Origin: a virus
Taxonomy: Duplodnaviria > Caudoviricetes
Length of the DNA stretch: 64,000 bases
Reading direction: 5' to 3' (one strand)
IMG/VR virus record: IMGVR_UViG_3300037249_000709
Location: 64,001 to 128,000 of that record
Part shown: in pieces, positions 3,269 to 50,127 of the stretch
Layout: each line of letters begins with the position of its first letter
Numbering within the stretch: position 1 is the first letter of the stretch
Notes under the pieces: generated by a model
The model's input: the letters and a program-made list of their open reading frames with translations, nothing else
Databases searched by the model: none
Told to the model about the DNA's origin: nothing
Program-made: the position numbers and the translations under genes

Positions 3269-3874
3269 TTATCCTCTCGATATTACGGTATAGCCGGTTG
3301 ATTTAATGTATGAAGGCGACATATAACCTCTTTTTCCGATACACAACCACCAATTACGCTTGAATTGATACGCCGGTAACATTTTCTTTAATCTTTCGCC
3401 GTTGCACTCGATAATCGAACCAACGGGTAGATTTTCCAAACTGTCCGGATTCTTCTTTGCTTTTTTCTTTTCCTCGTGCCGCTCTTTGCAACGTCGTCTC
3501 CACTCTTTCGCATTCTCACTTTCCGTTTCAGTTAGCAGATTTAGAATGCTAATAGGGCAGTCGTAATAATATGGATGCATATCTTCTGACATATCCTTAT
3601 AACCAAAGGTGTAGCCGGTAAAATATCCATATGCTTCCTTGCCCGTTGACGTGAGAATAACTACAGCAGAAACATCTTGTTTTTCCGTTGGTATCATCTC
3701 TAATTCCCCGTCAACATATTTTCCGATTCTGCGAATTGCAGCATAATAAACCGCACCAACCATAGCGGATTTTTCCACTCTAAAAACAGTGTCGGTACAA
3801 AGTGCGTCGCACTCTGCCTTTCTATCAACTTTTCCGTTTTTAAAATATCGTGCGCTTCCTACTGTCCATCCCAT
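3269..3874 (-). CDS. DUF6927-like protein
   Basis: MGWT, VYYAA, FGYKDMSEDMHPYYYDCP and AKEWRRRC motifs. Confidence 0.65.
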   Translation of the reverse strand: MGWTVGSARYFKNGKVDRKAECDALCTDTVFRVEKSAMVGAVYYAAIRRIGKYVDGELEMIPTEKQDVSAVVILTSTGKEAYGYFTGYTFGYKDMSEDMHPYYYDCPISILNLLTETESENAKEWRRRCKERHEEKKKAKKNPDSLENLPVGSIIECNGERLKKMLPAYQFKRNWWLCIGKRGYMSPSYIKSTGYTVISRG

Positions 3875-4485: not shown

Positions 4486-4824
4486 TTAATTTTCCGTAAA
4501 CAAGTCGATTATTTTCTGAATGCGATTATATACGGTATTGTAGTTGTTGATGTTCGGTAACAAGTAAATCGCCGTAAATTCCGCCGTGTCCTTGACTATT
4601 CGTACATTCTCCGGCTTCCATTCGTCGGTACAAGCATAAAAAGCAATGCTTGATAACGCGCCGCCGATAATTCCCGTTAAAGCTCTGCGTTCTTCTTCTG
4701 TTGCCTTGCGTTCTTCTAAATCGTGAGTGATAACTGTTGATGAAAAATCTCGTACCGCTTCGGCTCTGATGTTTTGGTCAAAGAAATTATCCGATAAACC
4801 TAATGTGTTAATAAATTTTTTCAT
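4486..4824 (-). CDS. hypothetical protein
   Basis: ATG 4824 overlaps upstream stop (ATGA); AAGGAG RBS. Confidence 0.7.
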   Translation of the reverse strand: MKKFINTLGLSDNFFDQNIRAEAVRDFSSTVITHDLEERKATEEERRALTGIIGGALSSIAFYACTDEWKPENVRIVKDTAEFTAIYLLPNINNYNTVYNRIQKIIDLFTEN

Positions 4825-4952
4825 TCTGCATTCTCCTTCTGCATTTCTTCCCATAGTGTTTGAATTGTTTTGTCTATCTTGTCAAGCGTGATTTCGCCGT
4901 GTTTGTACATATCCATTGCAAGGTTAAAAGCATCTATTATGTGCCATTCCAT
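4821..4952 (-). CDS. 43-aa hypothetical protein (not in ORF track)
   Basis: AAGGAGG RBS; MEWHIIDAFNLAMDMYKHGEITLDKIDKTIQTLWEEMQKENAE; coupled to next gene. Confidence 0.6.
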   Translation of the reverse strand: MEWHIIDAFNLAMDMYKHGEITLDKIDKTIQTLWEEMQKENAE

Positions 4953-4964
4953 TGTATAGCCTCC

Positions 4965-5264
4965 TTAATAGTTGATGTGCATTTTTGCGTGTTCTAATGC
5001 TATTGCGACTATCTCAGCCGGAAAATTCCCTTCGGGATAGTATCTCTTGATTTGTCCTGGGCGTGCTATTAACTTTGTAACAAGTCTGTTTGTCCTTGCA
5101 TTATAGATGATTATTATTCCGTTCGTTGTGAGAATGTGACGTTCTGCGCCGTTCTTGTGTCCATTATCAACGATAAATTCTGCATATGTAGTGCCTTCGC
5201 CGATTTCCTGGATGTGGCGTTCTCTAAATCTGCGTTCTTTTGCATAGTGTAGACTTTTTCTCAT
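4965..5264 (-). CDS. hypothetical protein
   Basis: ORF with GGAGG RBS. Confidence 0.7.
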   Translation of the reverse strand: MRKSLHYAKERRFRERHIQEIGEGTTYAEFIVDNGHKNGAERHILTTNGIIIIYNARTNRLVTKLIARPGQIKRYYPEGNFPAEIVAIALEHAKMHINY

Positions 5265-5283
5265 CTTTGCCGCCTCCGTTCTT

Positions 5284-5520
5284 TTAAACCACCATTAAAA
5301 GCGCTTTTGTCCTCGCTGATATTGCGTATGTAACGCCGGTGTCCTTGTCTCTGATGATGCAGCCGTTCACGCCGAAAATTCCGGTACTGTACATTATTCT
5401 CGTTACTCTGCGTTCACTAAGAAAACGCTTCATTGTGCCGGTGTCGTAGTTTGTAATGTTGACTGCTTCGCCGTCTTTAATCCATCGTCTGATGCGTGTG
5501 TTCGTCACTTTTTCAAGCAT
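5284..5520 (-). CDS. phage hypothetical protein
   Basis: ORF with AAGGTGA RBS. Confidence 0.65.
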   Translation of the reverse strand: MLEKVTNTRIRRWIKDGEAVNITNYDTGTMKRFLSERRVTRIMYSTGIFGVNGCIIRDKDTGVTYAISARTKALLMVV

Positions 5521-5605
5521 AACATATCACCTTTTAAATTTATTACACTAATTTTAGTGTTGGGATGGAGTTGCTTCGGGCGCAGCTCCTCAAAAGCCCT
5601 TTTTG

Positions 5606-5863
5606 TTACATTTCTGTAACTCCCTTGTATACTATTCGCTTCATATCGTAATAGCACAAATCGGGCGCGTATTCCTTCAAAAACCATCCGATTTGTTTAA
5701 TCGTCGTCATCGAATATGTGCCGGTACACTCGATAAAGCGGCGATTATTGATAATCTGAATAGTGATAACGCGCGTTCTATAGCTGATGAAGTCAACGCT
5801 ATTGTCGTCGTTGATGCAAACATAGCATTGTGCATAGGGATGATTCTTCAAAGTCTTTTTCAT
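5606..5863 (-). CDS. phage early hypothetical protein
   Basis: GGAGGT RBS before ATG 5863; ISYRTRV and YSMTTIKQ motifs. Confidence 0.65.
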   Translation of the reverse strand: MKKTLKNHPYAQCYVCINDDNSVDFISYRTRVITIQIINNRRFIECTGTYSMTTIKQIGWFLKEYAPDLCYYDMKRIVYKGVTEM

Positions 5864-5958
5864 AATGGAATACCTCCGATATTTAGTATTTGCAGTTACG
5901 GGCTTGTGACCGTCAACGGCTGCATTACCGGCAGCGGATTCGCCGCCGTCACTCTGCA

Positions 5959-6282
5959 TTAAATGAATTGAATGTTTGCGTAGTTGACACGCTCGTACAT
6001 TATCGACTCTTGATTCAGCTTGACCTTCAGCGACTTGATAATCTCGCAGATTTTTCCGTCAATAACATCATCTGATGCAATTTCGATTCTAAATGATTTT
6101 TCCTTTACGATTTCGCCGTTCTCGTGTCTGTAAACTCCGTAGCACTCGAACATTGTAAAAGCGTAGATATCAAAATCAATCAGCAGCGTGTCCGCGATAA
6201 TCTCGTGTGCGTTCTCTGTGTTGATGAGCTGCGTCTTTGTGATTTTGTCGTTTAATCCGACTGTTAATGTGTACTTTGTCAT
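5959..6282 (-). CDS. DUF3574 / SAM-lyase-like protein
   Basis: GVYRHENGEIVKEKS...LKVKLNQESIM pattern. Confidence 0.5.
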   Translation of the reverse strand: MTKYTLTVGLNDKITKTQLINTENAHEIIADTLLIDFDIYAFTMFECYGVYRHENGEIVKEKSFRIEIASDDVIDGKICEIIKSLKVKLNQESIMYERVNYANIQFI

Positions 6283-6295
6283 TGTGATAACCTCC

Positions 6296-6323
6296 TATAA
6301 TGTAATTACTTGGATTGTTTCTT
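6296..6323 (-). promoter_or_regulatory. conserved 28-bp pre-RBS motif, copy 2
   Basis: AAGAAACAATCCAAGTAATTACATTATA abutting GGAGG RBS; GC hairpin 6324-6345 just upstream. Confidence 0.7.
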
Positions 6324-6364
6324 GGGCGGCTCGTTGTCGCCGCTCGTGTTTCTGTTGTGTCTAT

Positions 6365-6393
6365 ATTATATCATACTTTTATAAGTATGTCAA
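6365..6393 (-). promoter_or_regulatory. consensus sigma-A promoter with palindromic spacer
   Basis: exact copy of 3205-3233. Confidence 0.9.
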
Positions 6394-6654
6394 TGAAATT
6401 TCAAAAACTTTTTTCAGTTTGTAGCATTGCACAAAATCATAACATTACATTTGGCTGATACGTACAATGTCAAGCAAATTTTCCTTTTCCTTATTTATAT
6501 ATAGCTTGTAGCAGCTCCGCCAACGCTCCGGATATTCCTTTTTTTGTTTTCTCCGTTTTGTTTTTTAATATTGGATTTTTTGTGATGTTCTGAAAATTTC
6601 CTATTGTTTTTTAATATTCCTATTTTTTGTAAATCCATCACGAAATTTCCTGGT

Positions 6655-8424
6655 TTTTTAAAATTGCTTTTTTCTGTGATGCCTTGCCAGTTTTCCGTAA
6701 TTTTGAAAAATGGTAGATTTGCTTTCCATCTTTCCGAATATTCTCGTTTTTCAAAATTCAAATTTTTTGTTGGTGTACAGATTTTCCGAATTTTTAAAAA
6801 TCATTTATCAAATTGTTCTTGTTTTTCAAAATGCAGATTTTCCGGTATGCAATACCAATTTTTCTATATTTTGAAAAATCTTCTTTTATGTTCTGATTCT
6901 CCGAAGAATAACCATTTTTCAAAATTCCGTTTTTCTGTTTGTGTTGTGCGGATTTTCCCAATTTTGAAAAACGCTTTTTTCTGTTCTGACTTTCCAAAGA
7001 ATGAATATTTTTCAAAATCGAATTTTCTTGTTGATGTTCTCCAATTATTTTGAATTTTGAAAAATCCTTTATTTCCGAATAGCTCCGGCAATTTTCCGAA
7101 GTTTTGAAAAATAGATTATTTCCGCACAAAAATTTTGATTTTGAAAAATTCTGAATTATTATAAATCTTCTGCAAATTTTCTTAATTTTGAAAAATAAAC
7201 ATTTCTGTTGTTGGTTTTCCAAAAATCCGAAGTTTTGAAAAATCCTTTTTAATAATCCATCATAAATAATTATTGTTTTTCAAAATTCCGTTTTTCTGTT
7301 GTGCCTCTCCCGTTTCCCGTAGTTTTTCAAAATTAGATTTTTCTGTTTGTTCTGTCCAATTTTTCTTGATTTTGAAAAATTCTATTTTGTTGGTCTGATT
7401 CTCCGACAAAATTCTATTTTTCAAAATTGCTTTTTTCTGTCCGGCAATTCCAATTTTTTAAAATTTTGAAAAATCCAAATTATCCGTGAACGATTCCAAA
7501 AAATCAGCATTTTGAAAAATTCTAAAACAAAACAAAAAAATCCTCGTTTTATTTTCTTGTCCAAAATTTCGAGATTTTGAAAAATTGAAATATCCTGAAT
7601 AGCTCCGCCAAAAATCCGAAGTTTTAAAAAATGATAAATTAATTTCTGATTTACCAAAAAAACAAATTTTCAAAAATGGTTTATATTTGCTCTTTTGCTC
7701 CAATTATTCAAGATTTTGAAAAATGATTTATATTTGTGATGTACTGCCAATTTTTCGGAATTTTGAAAAATTATTAATTATCGAAGAATTTAATTTGTTA
7801 TCAAATTGTAACCAAATTGTAATTATTATTTTCAATAATTCTGAATTTTGAAAAATGAAAAATTATCAACCAAATATAAAATTGTAATCAAATTGTAACT
7901 TTTATATTTAATAAATTTGAATTTTGAAAAATAAGATTTTGCCGGTGAATATATACAAAAAATAATGATTTTGAAAAATTGGGCGCTCTTTATTCTTGAT
8001 TTTTCAAAATTAGAGTTTTTTGTATTTAGTGTGCAATTTTGCATATTTTTCAAAATTGAATATTTTTGTAGATGATTTTTCAATATCGGATTTTTTTCGG
8101 AGTGAATAGCAAATAATCAGAATTTTGAAAAATGATATTTTGATTTTTTCGCTGTTTTTCAAAATTGCTCTTTTTTTGTTTTCGTAAGCAAAAAATATTG
8201 ATTTTGAAAAATGTTTTGTTTGCGGTCGTTGTTTTTCAAAATTGGGATTTTTTGAGCGGTCAATGCTGATTTTGCCGGTTTTTCAAAATTGAGGAAATTT
8301 GTAAACCAATACAAAAAAATTGAATTTTGAAAAATGTAAATTATTGGGCGGTCAAATACAAAAAAGTCGAATATTGAAAAATGGATTGATGCAGCATTCA
8401 AAGAAATTTGATTTTTCAAAATTG
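6655..8424. repeat. non-coding periodic array of about 37 (A)TTTTGAAAAA(T) boxes in mixed orientation, modal pitch 46-47 bp
   Basis: box centres counted by hand, e.g. 6827, 6873, 6920, 6966, 7013, 7059, 7106; spacers non-identical. Confidence 0.9.
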
Positions 8425-8436
8425 GATTTTTTGGTA

Positions 8437-8470
8437 GACAAAAAGTAAAGCCGGGATTACTCCCGGCGTG
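8437..8470 (-). terminator. intrinsic terminator after amidoligase gene
   Basis: GCCGGGA-GTAA-TCCCGGC followed by TTTACTTTT on minus strand. Confidence 0.7.
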
Positions 8471-8477
8471 TTGGTGT

Positions 8478-9320
8478 TTAGATTTCGATTTCGGCGATTG
8501 CCTTTTCGTACAATTTAACAATTTTGTTTGCGGTAACGTCTGCCTTGTGTTTGCGGTACTCTTTGATTGTTGGATACCGTCTTGTGTCAAACTCGGAGTC
8601 GTTGAAATGCTTGATAAAGTTTTCAATGATGCAGTTGCCAACAGCTTTTATAAACCTTGCGACACGCATCATTTGTGTTGCGTTCTGGTACTTTACGAGT
8701 CTAAATTCAATCGTGTTGGAGTGTTGCAGGTTGATGAAATTCTCGTGTGTCGTTGCGTTCGTGTAGCTATATATTGGAGCTGCCCAATGATTGAAGTCGC
8801 GTCCCCAAAATGCAGCGGTCTTGTCGCTATGTTCTCTGATTGACTCGCAAAGAGGAATAAATAAAGAGTGATAAAAGCGGCGGATATAATCCATAGTTTC
8901 ACGGTTGATGTATTCTCTGTTGCCATAGTGTGTGTGCGTGCCGCAGTCGTCATTGATTTCTAAATGTCCTTCCGCGATGAGCTTATCAAAAGTTGTGAAT
9001 GTTTTGCTGATACTATTCAAACCGTTGTAAATGGGCGACTTGTACTCAACATTCACGGTACAATCGAAAGTCGGGAGAAATTTTGCGGCGATTAATTCAC
9101 CTCTTGCGATTTCGTCAGAATAACTTGTTTCTAATTCCCATCCGAATGTGTCTTTACTAACTTTTGTTTTGCCGTGTCTCTTGTTGTTATCTGCTGAATA
9201 GCTTGCTTTTTCGTATGCGTGAAATTCGCACATATAGGCGTTACGCCCGCCGCGTCTTGCTAATGGTGTTTTGATTGTTGCCGGTGCAGTGCAGCCGGGG
9301 AAAGTACATTTACACATCAT
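8478..9320 (-). CDS. putative amidoligase (COOH-NH2 ligase, Amidoligase_2 type)
   Basis: FGWELET, EYKSP, CGTHTH, INL and TIEFR motifs. Confidence 0.8.
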   Translation of the reverse strand: MMCKCTFPGCTAPATIKTPLARRGGRNAYMCEFHAYEKASYSADNNKRHGKTKVSKDTFGWELETSYSDEIARGELIAAKFLPTFDCTVNVEYKSPIYNGLNSISKTFTTFDKLIAEGHLEINDDCGTHTHYGNREYINRETMDYIRRFYHSLFIPLCESIREHSDKTAAFWGRDFNHWAAPIYSYTNATTHENFINLQHSNTIEFRLVKYQNATQMMRVARFIKAVGNCIIENFIKHFNDSEFDTRRYPTIKEYRKHKADVTANKIVKLYEKAIAEIEI

Positions 9321-9376
9321 AAAAATGCCTCCTTAAATTCACGCCGTCGGCGTGTGTTTGTTTTGTTGACATCTTT

Positions 9377-9405
9377 ATTTTATCATACTGTTAACAGTGC
9401 GTCAA
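9377..9405 (-). promoter_or_regulatory. sigma-A promoter of amidoligase gene
   Basis: TTGACG-17bp-TAAAAT with extended -10; ACTGTTAACAGT palindrome in spacer. Confidence 0.8.
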
Positions 9406-9686
9406 TATGAATTTTTAAAAATTTCGATTTTTTGGTGATATTCGTAACTTTTGCACAAATTATTATTTCTGATTTGTTGGGTTTTTATGTATATTTTCGT
9501 GATTTTAATTCTTTTTTAGAAATAAAAATCGGATAGAGCTGCACCAACTTTTGAAAATCGCCTATTGTATTATTATATTCTTATATAGGCAAATTTTGAA
9601 AATTTTTGCAAGCATTTATTTTCTTTTTGAGAATAAAGGGAATTGTTACATTTTGTAATTGTTGTTACATTTTTGAAGTGTGAATT

Positions 9687-9707
9687 TGAAAATGATTCTC
9701 ATTTTCA
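9687..9707. promoter_or_regulatory. Fur-box-like palindrome
   Basis: TGAAAATGA-TTC-TCATTTTCA; 15/19 match to GATAATGATAATCATTATC. Confidence 0.4.
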
Positions 9708-9900
9708 TTTTTGAAAATTTCGGCAATAATAAGCATACCGAAATATTTTCTCGAAATTCTATATTATAAAAAAATTCAATTTTGAAAAATCATCATTTTT
9801 TAAAAATAAAATGTTCGTTTTATTGCAATGCTATACAAAACTAAATAATCAAAAATAGGCGGCTTCAAGTCCGAAAAATGCACAATTACGGACTTGTACC

Positions 9901-10260
9901 CCTCAATTATTGGTACTTTAAATCACTAAAGCATTGACGGGGGTACTTTTACACTTTAACTCATTAAAGCGATGCGACTCATACCCCTGTGTGCTTCCCC
10001 TCACTCTTTGCTCAAAATTTCCCGAAAATTAAAAAAAGTTCAAAATTCTCAAATTCCCCTCAATAATTGAGGCATTACCGAAATTTATCTCGAAAATAAA
10101 AAAATCCTCAATTTATGAGAGTTTTCGTAAATTTCCCGAAATTCTTTTTGATTTTATAAGTCCTCAATTATTGGTAACTTTTTCGGTATTTTTTAAAATT
10201 ATAAAAATTCGTTAATCAATGCCGGACTTAGATATAAAAAAGTTCTCAATTTAAGGGAAC
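9901..10260. repeat. five CTCAATWWWTGRG-type operator-like palindromes
   Basis: copies at 9901, 10058, 10106, 10162 and 10242 (degenerate); sixth copy at 15643. Confidence 0.65.
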
Positions 10261-10398
10261 TTTAATTTATTAGCAATAACTATCAAATATATGTTTTAAC
10301 TAATATAACCCGAATTTTAATAGATTTTCGCGACTTAATATTAGCGAAATTTTATAGGATTTTTCTTTAAAAAAGACGATTTTTTAATAAACGAACTC

Positions 10399-10864
10399 AT
10401 ACTAATACATTATTACTATTATAATACTTATAAGAATCTTAATAGTATTAGTATGTTCTTTTAAGAATCTTATATTTATTATTATAGTAATTATAATAAT
10501 ACTATTACTATAATATATATAAGGAAGTGCAATTTCTTAACATTTTCATTGTGGGAGCTGCTACTTATATGCCGCAAAGTATTATTTATATTTCCCTATT
10601 GCTTTAAAATTGCCTACAAGCCTTTCTAAGCCACGATATATTTATGGGGTATAGTTTCACATCTTAATTGCATTTCGTTGAATACAGGGCATTCTGGGGC
10701 ATTTTAGAGCTATTTTTAGAAATCATCTTAGGTTTCACATTATAATACTAATACATTATTACTATTATTATCTTTATTAGAATCACAATAGTATTAGTAT
10801 TTAGATAGTGAGAATCCTATTACTATAATATATGATTAAGGAAATGCAGTTTCTTAACATTTTT
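10399..10864. repeat. imperfect duplication of a 120-150 bp AT-rich unit with internal inverted repeat
   Basis: 10399-10546 vs 10745-10864; each has ATACTAATAC...GTATTAGTAT and ends AAGGAAnTGCAnTTTCTTAACATTTT. Confidence 0.8.
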
Positions 10865-10887
10865 TGAAAACACACCCAAATAACTAC

Positions 10888-10916
10888 TTGACTAATTTTA
10901 ATTTTTATGGTATAAT
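10888..10916 (+). promoter_or_regulatory. sigma-A promoter for the RNA polymerase operon
   Basis: TTGACT-17bp-TATAAT with extended -10 TG. Confidence 0.8.
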
Positions 10917-10945
10917 TATAATAGGATAATATAAGAGGTGGTTTA

Positions 10946-11623
10946 GTGGAATTTGTTAAAGTGCCTCGAAGTTTAATTTATAATATTGGACTTGGCGACA
11001 AGAGGGTTATTGCTTATCTTTCAATCTTGTTCTCTGGGTGGGATGGCAAGAAGGTGTCAGACCTTGCCGCCTATTCCCTATATTCATCTTTTAGAGGAAC
11101 AGGAGGCGTGATAAGTAATTTTAAAATATTGGTTTCTAAATTGCTTTCTTTGGGCGTTCTTGCCAAAACCGAGAAAGGAATTTTTATAGCTCAAACTTGC
11201 GAACAGTTTGGTATAGTGTATCAATCAGAGTTTAATAAAATACTTGCATATAGAAAGGAATGTATGCAACTCGGCAAAAGAATAAACCACGCTCATCTCC
11301 TGCTTCTACTCGCTTATATCCGCCTGCATATGATACATATGCAAGGGCAGCCCTGCTTTTACTCTAATCTACTTGTCCGTATATCAGAAAGCACAGGCTT
11401 ATCCGTTCGTTCAATATCGGCTTGTTTAAATGTATTGGAGCAGTTGGAGATAGTACATAGTGAGGAACTTGCAAGATACCAAACCAAAGATGGTGTGTGG
11501 CATTCAAACGTAAGAATAATAGTAAATATGAAGATTCAAGGAAACATTAAATATGATTGGAAAAGTGAAGCACAAAGAGCAGCATTTTATATTCGTTCTT
11601 TAAGCAGACAAAATGGAGGATAA
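10946..11623 (+). CDS. winged-helix DNA-binding protein (possible replication initiator or regulator)
   Basis: LLVRISESTGLSVRSISACLNVLEQLEIV wHTH pattern. Confidence 0.55.
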   Translation: MEFVKVPRSLIYNIGLGDKRVIAYLSILFSGWDGKKVSDLAAYSLYSSFRGTGGVISNFKILVSKLLSLGVLAKTEKGIFIAQTCEQFGIVYQSEFNKILAYRKECMQLGKRINHAHLLLLLAYIRLHMIHMQGQPCFYSNLLVRISESTGLSVRSISACLNVLEQLEIVHSEELARYQTKDGVWHSNVRIIVNMKIQGNIKYDWKSEAQRAAFYIRSLSRQNGG

Positions 11624-11631
11624 ACATAATT

Positions 11632-11952
11632 ATGGATAAATTATATTCGCAAAAACTTGAACAAAGAGTTTTTAAAACACTATCAGATTCAGAGTGGCAA
11701 ACATATTTTCAAATATTAAAAATATTATCGTCGAGTTATATGCAGCATAGTTCATATTACGACAAAAGGTCGGATGATATTCGCAAACACGATTATTGTA
11801 CATTTATTGATAGTGTGCTTTGCTCTTTGAGAGGTGGCAAAACCGATTATTGCTATCACATATATCAAATCGTGGATTTGCTATATTTTGAAAAAGATAG
11901 GTTAAAAACTCGGTGGTTGCCAGAACATAAGTGTTTCGAGGTTTATTTTTAA
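11632..11952 (+). CDS. hypothetical protein
   Basis: ORF with GGAGG RBS. Confidence 0.65.
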   Translation: MDKLYSQKLEQRVFKTLSDSEWQTYFQILKILSSSYMQHSSYYDKRSDDIRKHDYCTFIDSVLCSLRGGKTDYCYHIYQIVDLLYFEKDRLKTRWLPEHKCFEVYF

Positions 11953-11957
11953 CCTGT

Positions 11958-11984
11958 AAGAAACAACGCAAGTAATTATATTAT
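11958..11984 (+). promoter_or_regulatory. conserved pre-RBS motif, copy 3, upstream of RNA polymerase
   Basis: AAGAAACAACGCAAGTAATTATATTAT, 2 mismatches to copy 1. Confidence 0.7.
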
Positions 11985-11999
11985 GTAGAGGATGGTTGA

Positions 12000-14741
12000 A
12001 TGGAGCAAAAAAAATGCTTGCGACTAATTTATAAAATACATAGCAAGCAACTAAAACAATCGAAATGGGAGTTAAACTTGCCTCTTGAAACGGCATTAAG
12101 CGACTGTCCGGAAGTTGTCGTGTCGATAAGCGATAACCAGATGCTAAGATTTATTGACGAGCTAAACGGTGTTGGGGATTTAGACAACCAAATCAAGTCG
12201 CTTCAAAGGAAAATAAAGGTTGAAAAGAAAAAGCCACGCAGCAAAGAAACAAAACTAAATATTAAGAGTTATTATAAAGAGTTATATTGCAAACAGTTTT
12301 TATCAGATTATGTTTGTGTGATTATGGATAGCAACAAAGACTATGACAGAGCTAATTTAGGATTCTCAATCAACGGGAAAAGATATAGGCGTTTTCTTGG
12401 AACTAATGGTGGTATTAAAAATTCAACCATTGTGTATGTTAATGCAGATTTATATGACGAGCTTAAAAGAAGATTGGATAACGGTCGCAATATGAATAAA
12501 TTACTCGTTCCAGCAAAGTTAGAAGCCTATCAAGCATTAGTATGTTCTGGTTCTACCCCTATCCCCCAACCTAACGGAATAATCGTGGTCAAAGATTGTA
12601 TTACTCACTTTCAAGAAGATGTAATACTGATAACAGATGAAGATGAGGGTGAACCTAAACTTACATATCAAAAAGGATATGATATTGAACACAATGATTC
12701 AGATGGATATGGTTTAATGTTGCCACAATATTCAACTCGTGTCAATGAATTTTTAACGGGTAATTCAACTCCATTATCGGGTATGAACACAAGGTATGCG
12801 TGGACTAAGGGTATGGTTTATACTTTTGATTTTGTTGAGTTTGCAGAAAAGATTGCAGGTACTTATGAGATAGAAGATGTCTGGGGTGACAAGCGAGATG
12901 TTCGGGATGCGGAAGTAATTCTGACAGAATCAATGTTGAAGCTGTGGAACTGCTATGATAGTTGGGAAGATTATTATGAGAACTGTCAAAAGAATCATTA
13001 TCAGTTTTCAACGCCAAAAATCACGCCAGAAGAATTAGAAAACAATCGTGATATGAACTATCAGTTCTTGCAAAGTTATGATTTCACTGATGATGATATT
13101 CGAGATATTTGCCAACCAACAATTAATGAAATTGATGATGTTGTTGGTATGGATTACCGAAAGACTTTGGCGTATCTAATGGGTTCAGGTGTGAATGAAG
13201 GAAATGTATGGATAGACAGAGAAGATTATATCAAGGCTTTAATGGTTGAACCTTCTCTAATTAACGATACATTCATTCGCAAAAAAATCTATTCAATGAT
13301 AAAAAAACGAATGGATTGTGCAAAAAAAGGTTCAATTAAAGTTGATGCAAACTTCGCTATGATTTCTGGCGACCCTTACGCATTAGCTCAAAATATGTTC
13401 GGGCTGCCTGTGAGCGGTTTATTAAGCAAGTGGGAAGTTTATCATAAGTATTGGATTGATAAGGGTGCAAATGAAATCGTTTGTTTTCGTGCGCCAATGA
13501 CTTGTCATAATAACATACGCAAAATGCAGCTACACAAGTCCGAACAGGCACAATATTGGTATAGGTATATGAATACTGTATTGATATATAATGCTTGGGA
13601 TTCTGCTTGTGAAGCAATGAATGGTGCAGATAAAGATGGTGACACAAATATGTGTAGTGACAATCCAATTCTTTTGGAGCGTACACAAAACTTGCCAACT
13701 ATAATTTGTATGCAGCGTTCGGCAACAAAGTGTGTGCCAACAGAGGAAGCTATAATAGCCGCTAACAAGCTGGCGTTCAATGACGATATTGGTGTTGTTA
13801 CAAACTATGTTACTTCAATGTTTGATGTACAGGCTAAATTTAAAAGGGGTACACCTGAGTATAATGAATTAGAAAAGAGGATAATGTGCGGGCAACATTT
13901 TCAGCAATTAACGATTGATAGAGCTAAAGGTATAATTGCAAAACCAATGCCTAAATATTGGTATAGTTTACGAGATGTAAAGAACACAGATGAAATTGAT
14001 AAAAATTTTAACGAGCGTATAGTTGCCGCATATAAACCATATTTTATGATTTATGTTTACCCGCACCTTAAACAAACATATAGCCAATATGAGAAAAATA
14101 GCAACAAAAAAGCAATTCGTTCATTCAGAAAGTATAAAATTGGAAGCGTTAAAGAGTTAAAGCAGTATGAGCCGAAAACCCACGAAATGGTAGATTTTTT
14201 ACATTATTACGAATTGAAGAAAAAGGTTAGCAATAATTCTTGCGTAGTTAATCGTATATGTGATGTGTTTGAAACAAAATATCCCAATTATAGCGCCATA
14301 AAAACTATTGGAACATCTTTTGACTACACTATATTGAAATGTGGCGTGGAGTATCTCAAACAGGATTATGATGAATTATCTAAACTGTTACAAGAATATC
14401 GCCACGAATATGATAGTTATAGGGAACAAGCTCGATATAGAAAGAATGAAGATGATAATGACACTTATTCACAAGAAAATTTTATTAACAGGTTCAAAAT
14501 GCGCAGTTTATTAATATGCAGCAACGAGCAAGAATTGTGTGATATTGTTTTAGACCTATGCTACAAGACAGATGGATTAAAACAATTTGCGTGGGATATT
14601 GCGGGCGATACAATAATTCAAAATTTACTTAAACGGAATAATTATACAATCACATATCCCGAATGTGTTGGAAATGAATTTGAATTTGGCGGAAAGACGT
14701 TTACAATGCAAACGATAAAATTGGAAGGTGAGAATGTATGA
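12000..14741 (+). CDS. YonO-like single-subunit double-psi-barrel RNA polymerase
   Basis: catalytic GADKDGD (DxDGD at 13629-13643), FRAP and SDGYG motifs; 913 aa; upstream of the morphogenesis cluster as in SPbeta. Confidence 0.85.
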   Translation: MEQKKCLRLIYKIHSKQLKQSKWELNLPLETALSDCPEVVVSISDNQMLRFIDELNGVGDLDNQIKSLQRKIKVEKKKPRSKETKLNIKSYYKELYCKQFLSDYVCVIMDSNKDYDRANLGFSINGKRYRRFLGTNGGIKNSTIVYVNADLYDELKRRLDNGRNMNKLLVPAKLEAYQALVCSGSTPIPQPNGIIVVKDCITHFQEDVILITDEDEGEPKLTYQKGYDIEHNDSDGYGLMLPQYSTRVNEFLTGNSTPLSGMNTRYAWTKGMVYTFDFVEFAEKIAGTYEIEDVWGDKRDVRDAEVILTESMLKLWNCYDSWEDYYENCQKNHYQFSTPKITPEELENNRDMNYQFLQSYDFTDDDIRDICQPTINEIDDVVGMDYRKTLAYLMGSGVNEGNVWIDREDYIKALMVEPSLINDTFIRKKIYSMIKKRMDCAKKGSIKVDANFAMISGDPYALAQNMFGLPVSGLLSKWEVYHKYWIDKGANEIVCFRAPMTCHNNIRKMQLHKSEQAQYWYRYMNTVLIYNAWDSACEAMNGADKDGDTNMCSDNPILLERTQNLPTIICMQRSATKCVPTEEAIIAANKLAFNDDIGVVTNYVTSMFDVQAKFKRGTPEYNELEKRIMCGQHFQQLTIDRAKGIIAKPMPKYWYSLRDVKNTDEIDKNFNERIVAAYKPYFMIYVYPHLKQTYSQYEKNSNKKAIRSFRKYKIGSVKELKQYEPKTHEMVDFLHYYELKKKVSNNSCVVNRICDVFETKYPNYSAIKTIGTSFDYTILKCGVEYLKQDYDELSKLLQEYRHEYDSYREQARYRKNEDDNDTYSQENFINRFKMRSLLICSNEQELCDIVLDLCYKTDGLKQFAWDIAGDTIIQNLLKRNNYTITYPECVGNEFEFGGKTFTMQTIKLEGENV

Positions 14742-49000: not shown

Positions 49001-50127
49001 CTAATGCGGTTGGCGTTCCGCTTTCAGATGGTATGAAAAACACTTGGGAACAAGCGGCAAAAAACATTGAAGCGTGGAACGCAACTCACGTAGCAGACCA
49101 ACAAATAACTGAGCAAGCACTATTAGATACCTCTAATTCGTGGGCGACTTTTGGAGAAGGACTGAACACTCGTCAGGACTTCTTGAATACGCAAGAGGGC
49201 GAAATTGTACTTGCTACAAATAATACCACCCAAGGTATCAACAAGGTGTGGGGCGACATTGGCGTAGCCGGCGGTCAAACGCTCGTAGAAAAAGCCGATG
49301 AAGATTATGTAAAAATGCGCGGTGATATGACCAATGACAAAAACGATATTGTTGGAGATATTACTACGGGTATAACCAATGGTGTGTCCGATATTGATGG
49401 GAATGATAGCAATATAAATTCTAATCTAAGCACGGCAAATGATACTTTAAAGGATATTAAAGATTTTGTTGAGAAGATACAAGAACGTGCAGAAGAAGCA
49501 GCTACTCCTTATATGGGAGATGTTAATTTGGATGATAATGTTGACTCTGCCGATGCATTAAAGGTGTTGAGAGGCGCTGTTGCTCTGGAGAGATTAACGG
49601 AGAGTGAAAAAGCTCTTGCAGATGTTAATGGTGATGGTCAGATTGATAGCGCAGATTCACTAATGATATTAAGGATGGGTATTGGACTTGAAGATAAAGT
49701 CAAGGTAAAAGCGTTTAGTACGGGTGGACTAAATGATACCCCAGGATTAGCAATGCTTCACGGAACGAAAGAAAAACCCGAACTTGTTTTAAATGCTAAC
49801 GACACAAAGAATTTTATCAATTTCAACGATACATTACGCGAGATGGAAAGAAGTCAAACACTTGATTTTATGAGTGGTTATGCGGGCATCGAAGCACCAC
49901 CGCTTCAATTAATAAAGTTGCCATCTTTTGCATCGGGTATGAGTAGTCCAACAATGAGTCAAGATGTTAGCATTACTAATAACTTTGCGATTGAGCGTGT
50001 GCTTGATTATAATGATATAGTTAATAAAATGCGAAACGATAAAAAGTTTGGAAAAGTAATACAAGATATGAATATGAGTCAATTAGGTTATGGTAGCGAT
50101 ATGAGCAAAAATAAATATAGGTGGTAA
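43001..50127 (+). CDS. tape measure protein, exon 3 (spliced product 3198 aa)
   Basis: long helical repeats (IEEGSEAW), no RBS before TTG 43006, C-terminal dockerin. Confidence 0.9.
49516..49689 (+). other. type I dockerin-like domain within TMP
   Basis: duplicated Ca-binding loops GDVNLDDNVDSADAL and ADVNGDGQIDSADSL. Confidence 0.85.

Follow-up and report, generated by a model that had tools for sequence, protein, structure and literature searches.

We analyzed an array of short, regularly spaced boxes in the genome of a large uncultured phage of gut or rumen Clostridia (IMG/VR record IMGVR_UViG_3300037249_000709, 166.8 kb, with record ends that overlap by 141 bp). The window, to which coordinates refer unless otherwise stated, is the 64,000-bp stretch formed by bases 64001-128000 of this record. 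The GC content of the window is 36%, the promoters of the genome are of the Firmicute type (TTGACA-17-TATAAT), and a YonO-like RNA polymerase gene at 12000-14741 has its closest cultured relatives in Clostridium phage c-st, Enterocloster phages and SPbeta-like phages. The array occupies positions 6561-8422, ~1.9 kb without a credible gene, and lies upstream of a consensus sigma-A early promoter, P6393. The control of early transcription in large uncultured Firmicute phages of the gut and rumen is almost unknown.

The box array and its promoter

Read on the − strand, the locus consists of a promoter (9405-9377), a gene for an amidoligase-like protein of 280 amino acids (aa), a GC-rich terminator, the array, a gap of ~170 bp, promoter P6393 (6393-6365) and a leftward early operon. 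The terminator (8467-8450) is predicted to halt transcription ~25 bp ahead of the array. The original prediction, made from the window alone, had placed the array at the point where early and late genes diverge; the 280-aa gene (8478-9320, − strand) and a second non-coding region of 1.6 kb (9321-10945) were found to intervene before the rightward genes for a winged helix-turn-helix (wHTH) protein and for YonO. The array and its promoter comprise the following features:

6700-8422, − strand: core array of ~42 boxes of the form ATTTT(GA/TC/TA)AAAAT, 34 of them with exact 9-mer cores (motif scans)
6561-6665, − strand: promoter-proximal, degenerate end of the array, with three TTTTTTAA(T/A)ATT boxes starting at 6561, 6607 and 6654 at a pitch of 46-47 bp (read from the sequence)
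6397-6408, − strand: box-like element GTTTTTGAAAT just before the −35 hexamer of P6393, on its upstream side, its T-tract starting at about −49, the UP-element position
6365-6393, − strand: P6393, consensus sigma-A early promoter, TTGACA-17-TATAAT with TG (promoter scan)

There are a total of 36 copies of the exact 10-mer TTTTGAAAAA on the two strands of the window, as compared to 2.38 ± 1.70 expected from 100 dinucleotide-preserving shuffles of the window (largest count 9). Of the window copies, 33 lie at 6701-8421, and a genome-wide count puts 34 of 38 copies within this stretch of ~1.8 kb. The box is a 12-bp near-palindrome, ATTTT-NN-AAAAT, in which the center is GA or TC and occasionally TA. 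Exact 9-mer cores (n = 34) are centered at 6705, 6752, 6827, 6873 and onward to 8417, as originally listed, and the count of ~37 copies rises to ~45 boxes between 6653 and 8416 when matches to the 12-mer ATTTTGAAAAAT or its complement may differ at up to two positions. The start of the array, earlier set at 6655, moves to near 6561 with the degenerate boxes; near the promoters of related phages the boxes decay likewise, to the AATATTTAAAAA type.

Of the 33 intervals that separate exact cores, 19 measure 46-47 bp, the pitch first reported, and 22 measure 44-48 bp; random placement at the same density would give ~0.5 such intervals (our own estimate, assuming a geometric distribution). Measured from one 12-mer frame to the next, the pitch stays at 46-47 bp regardless of the central dinucleotide. 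The remaining intervals measure 30-33, 37, 65, 75-76, 85 and 88-92 bp, several of which equal 47 bp plus a degenerate box. Long-range register is absent: the array consists of runs of 2-9 regular units, with joints of 30-32, 37, 65, 76 and 85 bp between one run and the next. The suggestion that neighboring boxes sit on opposite faces of the DNA was arithmetic that assumed 10.5 bp per turn. Strict helical quantization of the spacings is only weakly supported (Rayleigh p ~0.02 at 10.5 bp, for the non-modal intervals), and a period near 11.75 bp fits at least equally well.

The unit is larger than the box. On the − strand a CA(G/A)AAAA element precedes the box by ~11 nt (at about −17) and TTGG or TTG follows it by ~10 nt. 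With a position weight matrix (PWM) of the flanks only, built from relatives whose boxes have TA centers, 26 of the 33 window units point toward P6393. Applied to loci outside its training set, the same matrix showed 23 of 25 units in locus L093 and 9 of 12 in locus L059 facing their own promoters. The boxes had been described as flipping in orientation, of which the varying center (GA, TC, TA) stands; the 12-mer itself is palindromic and its flanks have mostly one polarity. As noted before, the spacers vary in sequence yet hold further A/T tracts, and the strongest periodicity of these tracts is 15.7 bp (= 47/3). A periodicity of 10.5 bp was not found among the A/T tracts of the array, and it is therefore not an intrinsically curved array of phased A-tracts.

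The view that the array is non-coding held up: its longest frames start with TTG, are of low complexity and have no Pfam match within the array. An Rfam search of 5500-11500 yielded no match in the array and a single match outside it, a twister ribozyme. RNA folds of 300 nt of the array scored barely better than shuffles (z = −2.2 and −1.2), a mild effect attributable to the inverted boxes, and the structure is not convincing.

Box clusters at the early promoters of related phages

We scanned related loci for three boxes at the observed pitch, and syntenic arrays with the same pitch, whose existence in relatives had been proposed as a check, were found in three of them. The array of the metagenome contig L064 is 100% identical to that of the window, and the 280-aa gene next to it is an allele whose DNA differs by 15.5%, which indicates a recombination joint at the array edge. 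In L056, 21 or more boxes share the pitch and position of the window array, with diverged spacers and with adjoining genes of 74% DNA identity, and L114, a 150-kb contig binned with a Ruminococcus metagenome-assembled genome, has ~20 boxes next to a gene whose protein is 77% identical. The layout of amidoligase-like gene, terminator, big array and leftward early promoter is thus common to three lineages, window/L064 (45 units), L114 and L056.

Other relatives, among them L088, L067, L109, L093, L059, L052, L096, L029 and L043, carry clusters of 2-8 boxes, often with a TA center, at a pitch of 47 bp (sometimes 57 bp), repeated every 600-800 bp in a cassette order of terminator, box cluster, consensus promoter and small open reading frame (ORF). 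Of the 124 near-consensus promoters in 19 related loci, 107 are preceded within 400 bp by one or more boxes. Around these 124 promoters there are 326 boxes upstream and 62 downstream, and their density peaks between −100 and −250. In addition, the start of TTTTNNAAAA peaks at −50/−49 in 54 of 123 promoters of relatives, as it does at P6393. A variant box, GTTTTTSAAAAC, with a pitch of ~30 bp likewise lies upstream of promoters in the YonO-bearing relative L015.

The central dinucleotide differs by lineage: the window, L056, L093 and L114 have GA/TC, whereas L088, L067, L109 and L029 have TA. Over the alignable part of the arrays, boxes of the window and L114 are identical at 135 of 144 positions (94%) and spacers at 197 of 355 (55%), with the GA/TC center kept in most aligned units; between the window and L056 the values are 83% for boxes and 59% for spacers. 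Judging from these alignments, the boxes are under purifying selection while their flanks drift. This agrees with the original argument for selection over tandem slippage, and recent slippage is rejected since Tandem Repeats Finder detects a single 47-bp tract of 2.4 copies (7664-7775). Internal blocks of 120-150 bp that are 72-78% alike show that the array grew in part through old segmental duplication.

The number of sites is similar whether they are dispersed or gathered. The pattern ATTTTKMAAAA, summed over both strands, occurs 59 and 57 times in the dispersed-type genomes G002 and G003 (controls 10 and 9) and 68 times in this genome (control 0). Per genome this amounts to ~57-59 sites in G002 and G003, ~35 in the L114 contig and, depending on the pattern, 44-68 in this phage, nearly all in one array. 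The three-part unit of 47 bp, the contrast between consolidated and dispersed boxes among relatives and the tight linkage to an amidoligase-like early gene are new.

Possible role in early transcription

Based on these comparisons, the array is most likely a hypertrophied member of a clade-wide cis-element that precedes consensus sigma-A early promoters. Box clusters lie upstream of nearly every early promoter in the relatives, which links the element with early transcription rather than with packaging, partition or injection. Two of the functions first considered find little support here: the boxes that a terminase would wrap at a pac site go with early promoters in relatives and the small terminase subunit (TerS) lies 13 kb from the array, and nothing supports an injection pause at boxes that track early promoters. 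A regularly spaced nucleoprotein complex, as originally proposed, remains the most sensible reading of the sequence.

We consider it about an even call that the array is a protein-docking control element of early sigma-A transcription, docked by a box-specific dimeric factor. As in an operator or upstream activating sequence (UAS) array, the motif lies upstream of the promoter and co-oriented with it and is conserved while the flanks drift. A dimer of a DNA-binding factor with sequence specificity, encoded by the phage or the host, would dock on each box. A dimeric, sequence-specific binder is favored because palindromic arms and a conserved, lineage-specific center argue for reading through the major groove, and we propose that such a center is the pattern expected of a co-evolving specific binder. 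Occupancy may spread cooperatively from unit to unit at the 47-bp pitch. The copy nearest the promoter overlaps the position of an UP element (−50 to −41), where its occupancy would set the engagement of RNA polymerase by way of the C-terminal domain of the alpha subunit (alpha-CTD) and sigma region 4. The effect on the early promoter could be activation, shut-off or insulation, with the upstream copies providing cooperativity or a reservoir. Since ~45 units are gathered before the first early promoter, the array may in addition offer the factor a reservoir or sink of high capacity.

Several observations weigh against a control element of this kind. Most other early promoters of this genome have no boxes, and in ~10 of them the motif ACCCAAATAACTAC adjoins the −35 hexamer instead; 45 units kept in one place are therefore not explained by a strictly promoter-local role. 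The proximal box lies anywhere between 40 and 230 bp from the −35 hexamer, without a clear helical phase, so the geometry of a classical activator or repressor is not supported. No box-binding protein emerged from the neighboring genes, Pfam or PHROGs, and the small early ORFs are ORFans without matches to DNA-binding domains. An Xre-like helix-turn-helix (HTH) protein of L114 was rejected as the common binder because homologs are absent from the window genome and the other loci.

The SPBRE of phage SPbeta offers a comparison. This short element occurs in the promoter regions of ~10 early genes, where it is bound by one master regulator, MrpR (YopR) (PMC10516654). Like the boxes, it is a repeated, conserved element at early promoters of a YonO-encoding phage, and the phage families are related, the YonO homolog of the present phage matching those of SPbeta-like phages and c-st. 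SPBRE is a single 15-bp site per promoter that is bound by a recombinase-fold repressor, whereas the boxes form a phased multi-copy array; ACCCAAATAACTAC, next to the −35 hexamer of ~10 promoters, looks more SPBRE-like than the boxes do.

The DNA grammar of the clade is simple and under strong selection: perfect sigma-A promoters are joined by 47-bp units of fixed polarity, each with a 12-bp T-tract/A-tract palindrome. The clade also amounts to a natural experiment, in which some phages distribute the sites over ~14 promoters and others concentrate them in one array of 20-45 units. This contrast makes local action, as an operator or enhancer, testable against global action, as a sink or antenna, and the array is a ready-made multivalent bait for pull-down of the factor.

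Alternative explanations

The main rival is a docking track for RNA polymerase, which we consider unlikely although it has more in its favor than the other alternatives. Here the boxes would be UP-element-like sites for alpha-CTD (core TTTT-NN-AAAA) that, together with the TTG, form promoter-like units without a −10 hexamer, and at a pitch of 47 bp holoenzymes would be able to sit next to one another, raising the local concentration of polymerase for the first early promoter. The Escherichia coli UP consensus of Estrem et al. (1998) is reportedly nnAAAWWTWTTTTnnAAAAnnn, spanning −59 to −38, and the box equals its core. At actual promoters the box stands in UP register with its T-tract starting at −50/−49, the units share the polarity of the promoter and a conserved downstream TTG, and the boxes accompany perfect-consensus, presumably very strong, promoters. 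The docking track thus accounts for register and polarity. It does not account for the center, whose positions vary freely ("n") in the UP consensus and here are near-invariant within each lineage and conserved unit by unit between the window and L114. Nor does it account for the distances: only the promoter-proximal copy, at P6393 and at the 54 of 123 promoters of relatives, occupies the UP-element position, while the units of the array, at −170 to −2030, are mostly beyond the reach of alpha-CTD. The distal half of the unit is unlike the promoters' own UP region, and sigma-70-type promoter-like matches over 5800-12100, array included, are modestly above shuffles (43 as compared to 30.8 ± 4.8).

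The rrn P1 promoters of E. coli have an A/T-tract UP element with a TTTTnnAAAA core at −50 to −41 and further Fis sites upstream. They resemble the present promoters in placing an A/T-tract element at −50 to −41 of very strong promoters with more sites for an architectural protein upstream. The differences are that here there are 2-45 sites rather than 3-5, at a fixed pitch of 47 bp and with a conserved central dinucleotide, and that Firmicutes are not known to have Fis.

Somewhat less probable than a docking track is that the boxes act globally, as a multivalent "sponge", one of the functions first considered, or "antenna". A host protein present as a fixed pool would be captured, be it RNA polymerase, held through alpha-CTD, or a nucleoid or defense protein. 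Because box totals are similar whether dispersed or gathered, and the other promoters of this genome are box-less, such a global function is possible. Perhaps the zinc-ribbon amidoligase, which is always adjacent, could modify the captured protein, by analogy with T4 Alt and ModA, which act on alpha-CTD.

A replication origin, in which the boxes would be iteron-like initiator sites in an AT-rich region where the gene arms diverge, is improbable. The global minimum of cumulative GC skew lies at 7500, inside the array, the GC content of the array (24%) is the lowest in the window, and three relatives (L003, L004 and L022) carry seven DnaA boxes in the neighboring gap, so that an origin is to be expected somewhere in the divergent region. 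The gap syntenic with that of these relatives is 9321-10945, beside the wHTH gene, not the array, and the array has no cluster of DnaA boxes. Moreover, the skew switch coincides with the switch in gene strand and is inseparable from it, and relatives scatter the same boxes in clusters upstream of many early promoters. Iteron origins have direct repeats of ~17-22 bp beside the initiator gene, with DnaA boxes or an unwinding element. A 12-bp palindrome at a pitch of 47 bp is unlike known iterons, and the wHTH gene stands 2.5 kb away, behind another gene; the GC-skew minimum is the one feature of an origin that fits.

Slightly less probable again is that the array is an evolutionary by-product, largely functionless, left when recombination of promoter-upstream clusters and segmental duplication removed genes and concatenated the clusters. 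The runs of 2-9 regular units match the cluster size of the dispersed-type relatives and have irregular joints between them, the internal blocks of 120-150 bp are 72-78% alike, and the L064 array, identical beside a gene that is 15.5% diverged, has joints at its edge. There is a documented precedent in T4-type phages, in which promoter early stem-loop (PeSL) cassettes consist of small early ORFs bounded by a strong sigma-70-type promoter and a terminator, and the modules double as recombination joints (PMC2839356). The dispersed-type relatives L088, L067, L109 and L093 share the cassette layout, and L064 shows a mosaic joint at the array edge, which together with the precedent suggests that cassette-type recombination helped build the array. 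The PeSLs differ in having no phased box array upstream, and a gene-free array of 45 units, without genes or strong promoters of its own, has no PeSL counterpart. Loss of function is at odds with boxes that are near perfect while the spacers have fallen to 55-59% identity in two other lineages, with the retained pitch and polarity, and with large arrays at the same position in three lineages.

A centromere-like partition site of a plasmid prophage, one of the functions originally considered, is highly improbable: the array resembles in form sopC of plasmid F (12 units of 43 bp, each with an inverted repeat) through tandem units of similar length (43 and 47 bp) with a short inverted repeat in each, the relative c-st is a plasmid prophage with TubZ and ParB-like genes within 10 kb of its YonO gene, the present genome encodes one ParB_N-domain protein, and centromere sites can be dispersed near promoters, as in N15, but sopC units are near-identical throughout and lie beside sopAB, while here 12 bp per unit are conserved, the boxes follow early promoters in relatives, the ParB_N gene is 77 kb away, and the genome has no match to tubulin/TubZ or to the AAA_31 or CbiA families of ParA-type ATPases that would act as the motor together with a centromere-binding protein (ParM was not searched).

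CRISPR arrays have repeats of 24-48 bp that are identical throughout, unique spacers and cas genes. This assignment is ruled out, as only 12 bp per unit are conserved, the center flips, the spacers share motifs and there is no Rfam match. Among the boxes of the host global regulators CodY, Fur, Rex, LexA and Spo0A, none appears to fit; the CodY box, AATTTTCWGAAAATT, is nearest but requires a center 2 bp longer. The spacer motif ATTTTCC was rejected as a second conserved site, since in the YonO relatives it is coding or 5'-untranslated sequence on the gene strand. A literature search with the box sequences returned irrelevant matches only, and the box is absent from the papers of the library searched.

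Neighboring genes and other features of the region

The array is flanked by the following features:

8450-8467, − strand: intrinsic terminator of the upstream 280-aa gene, with a 7-bp stem, six GC pairs and a T tail
8478-9320, − strand: 280-aa gene, the first leftward gene, with an N-terminal zinc ribbon and a glutamine-synthetase/YbdK-like amidoligase fold (Pfam, AlphaFold2, Foldseek)
9377-9405, − strand: promoter of the amidoligase-like gene, TTGACG-17-TAAAAT (promoter scan)
9377-9800, − strand: loose group of box-like sites upstream of that promoter, at 9412, 9549, 9594, 9709, 9780 and 9797
5898-5958, − strand: twister ribozyme, type P5 (RF02684; Rfam, 58.5 bits, E = 1.3e-10)

The 280-aa protein matches Pfam Amidoligase_2 (E = 3.9e-6), its AlphaFold2 model has a predicted local distance difference test (pLDDT) score of 90, and its best Foldseek matches are YbdK and glutamine synthetase. 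An alignment shows a zinc ribbon, CxxC ... KRGGR ... CxxH, and an invariant basic C-terminal helix. With an enzyme fold and a small zinc ribbon, as modeled, this protein is unlikely to be the box binder. At least 18 box-bearing loci carry the gene; it was undetected in 22 YonO-relative loci, 20 of these box-less (not L015, L016 and L024). A total of 23 IMG/VR loci with YonO homologs keep the order of early genes, non-coding gap, wHTH and YonO, most of them without the array and the 280-aa gene. A search of cultured-phage proteins found no homolog of the amidoligase-like protein, and a search of cultured-phage DNA found no similarity to 4500-12000. In L114, the 68-aa Xre/Cro-like HTH gene (3457-3663 of that locus, + strand) is an insertion between the array, toward which it is transcribed, and the leftward early promoter.

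P6393 is predicted to drive a leftward early operon composed of a gene at 5959-6282, the twister ribozyme and small ORFs, and the ribozyme sits between the first two genes. The spacer of P6393 (6371-6387) holds the palindrome CATACT-N6-AGTATG between the −35 and −10 hexamers, which implies that a separate repressor may act at the core promoter. The four promoters nearest the array have a T-tract/A-tract followed by GTA before the −35 hexamer. Genome-wide, ~10 consensus promoters share ACACCCAAATAACTAC abutting the −35 hexamer, in the window at 10872-10887, upstream of the + strand promoter at 10888-10916. By sequence these promoters form a candidate second class, and ACACCCAAATAACTAC would be a better candidate for an SPBRE-like operator than the boxes. 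The genome has three genes of the tyrosine recombinase family, one of which, an open frame of 325 aa, is in the early arm (genome coordinates 49169-49711).

Within the non-coding region 9321-10945, a palindrome-rich block is duplicated at 10382-10546 and 10739-10863, with a spacing of ~315-346 bp and copies that are 70-89% alike. The duplication immediately precedes the promoter of the wHTH gene, within the gap where L003, L004 and L022 have their DnaA-box clusters, and is a candidate origin or operator region. The YonO homologs of L012, L013, L017 and c-st (L111) span 3.8-4.0 kb of DNA for a match of ~900 aa, and the c-st gene is annotated as N- and C-terminal halves with another ORF between them. 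This suggests that the RNA polymerase gene of several relatives may hold insertions, perhaps an intron, an intein or a mobile ORF.

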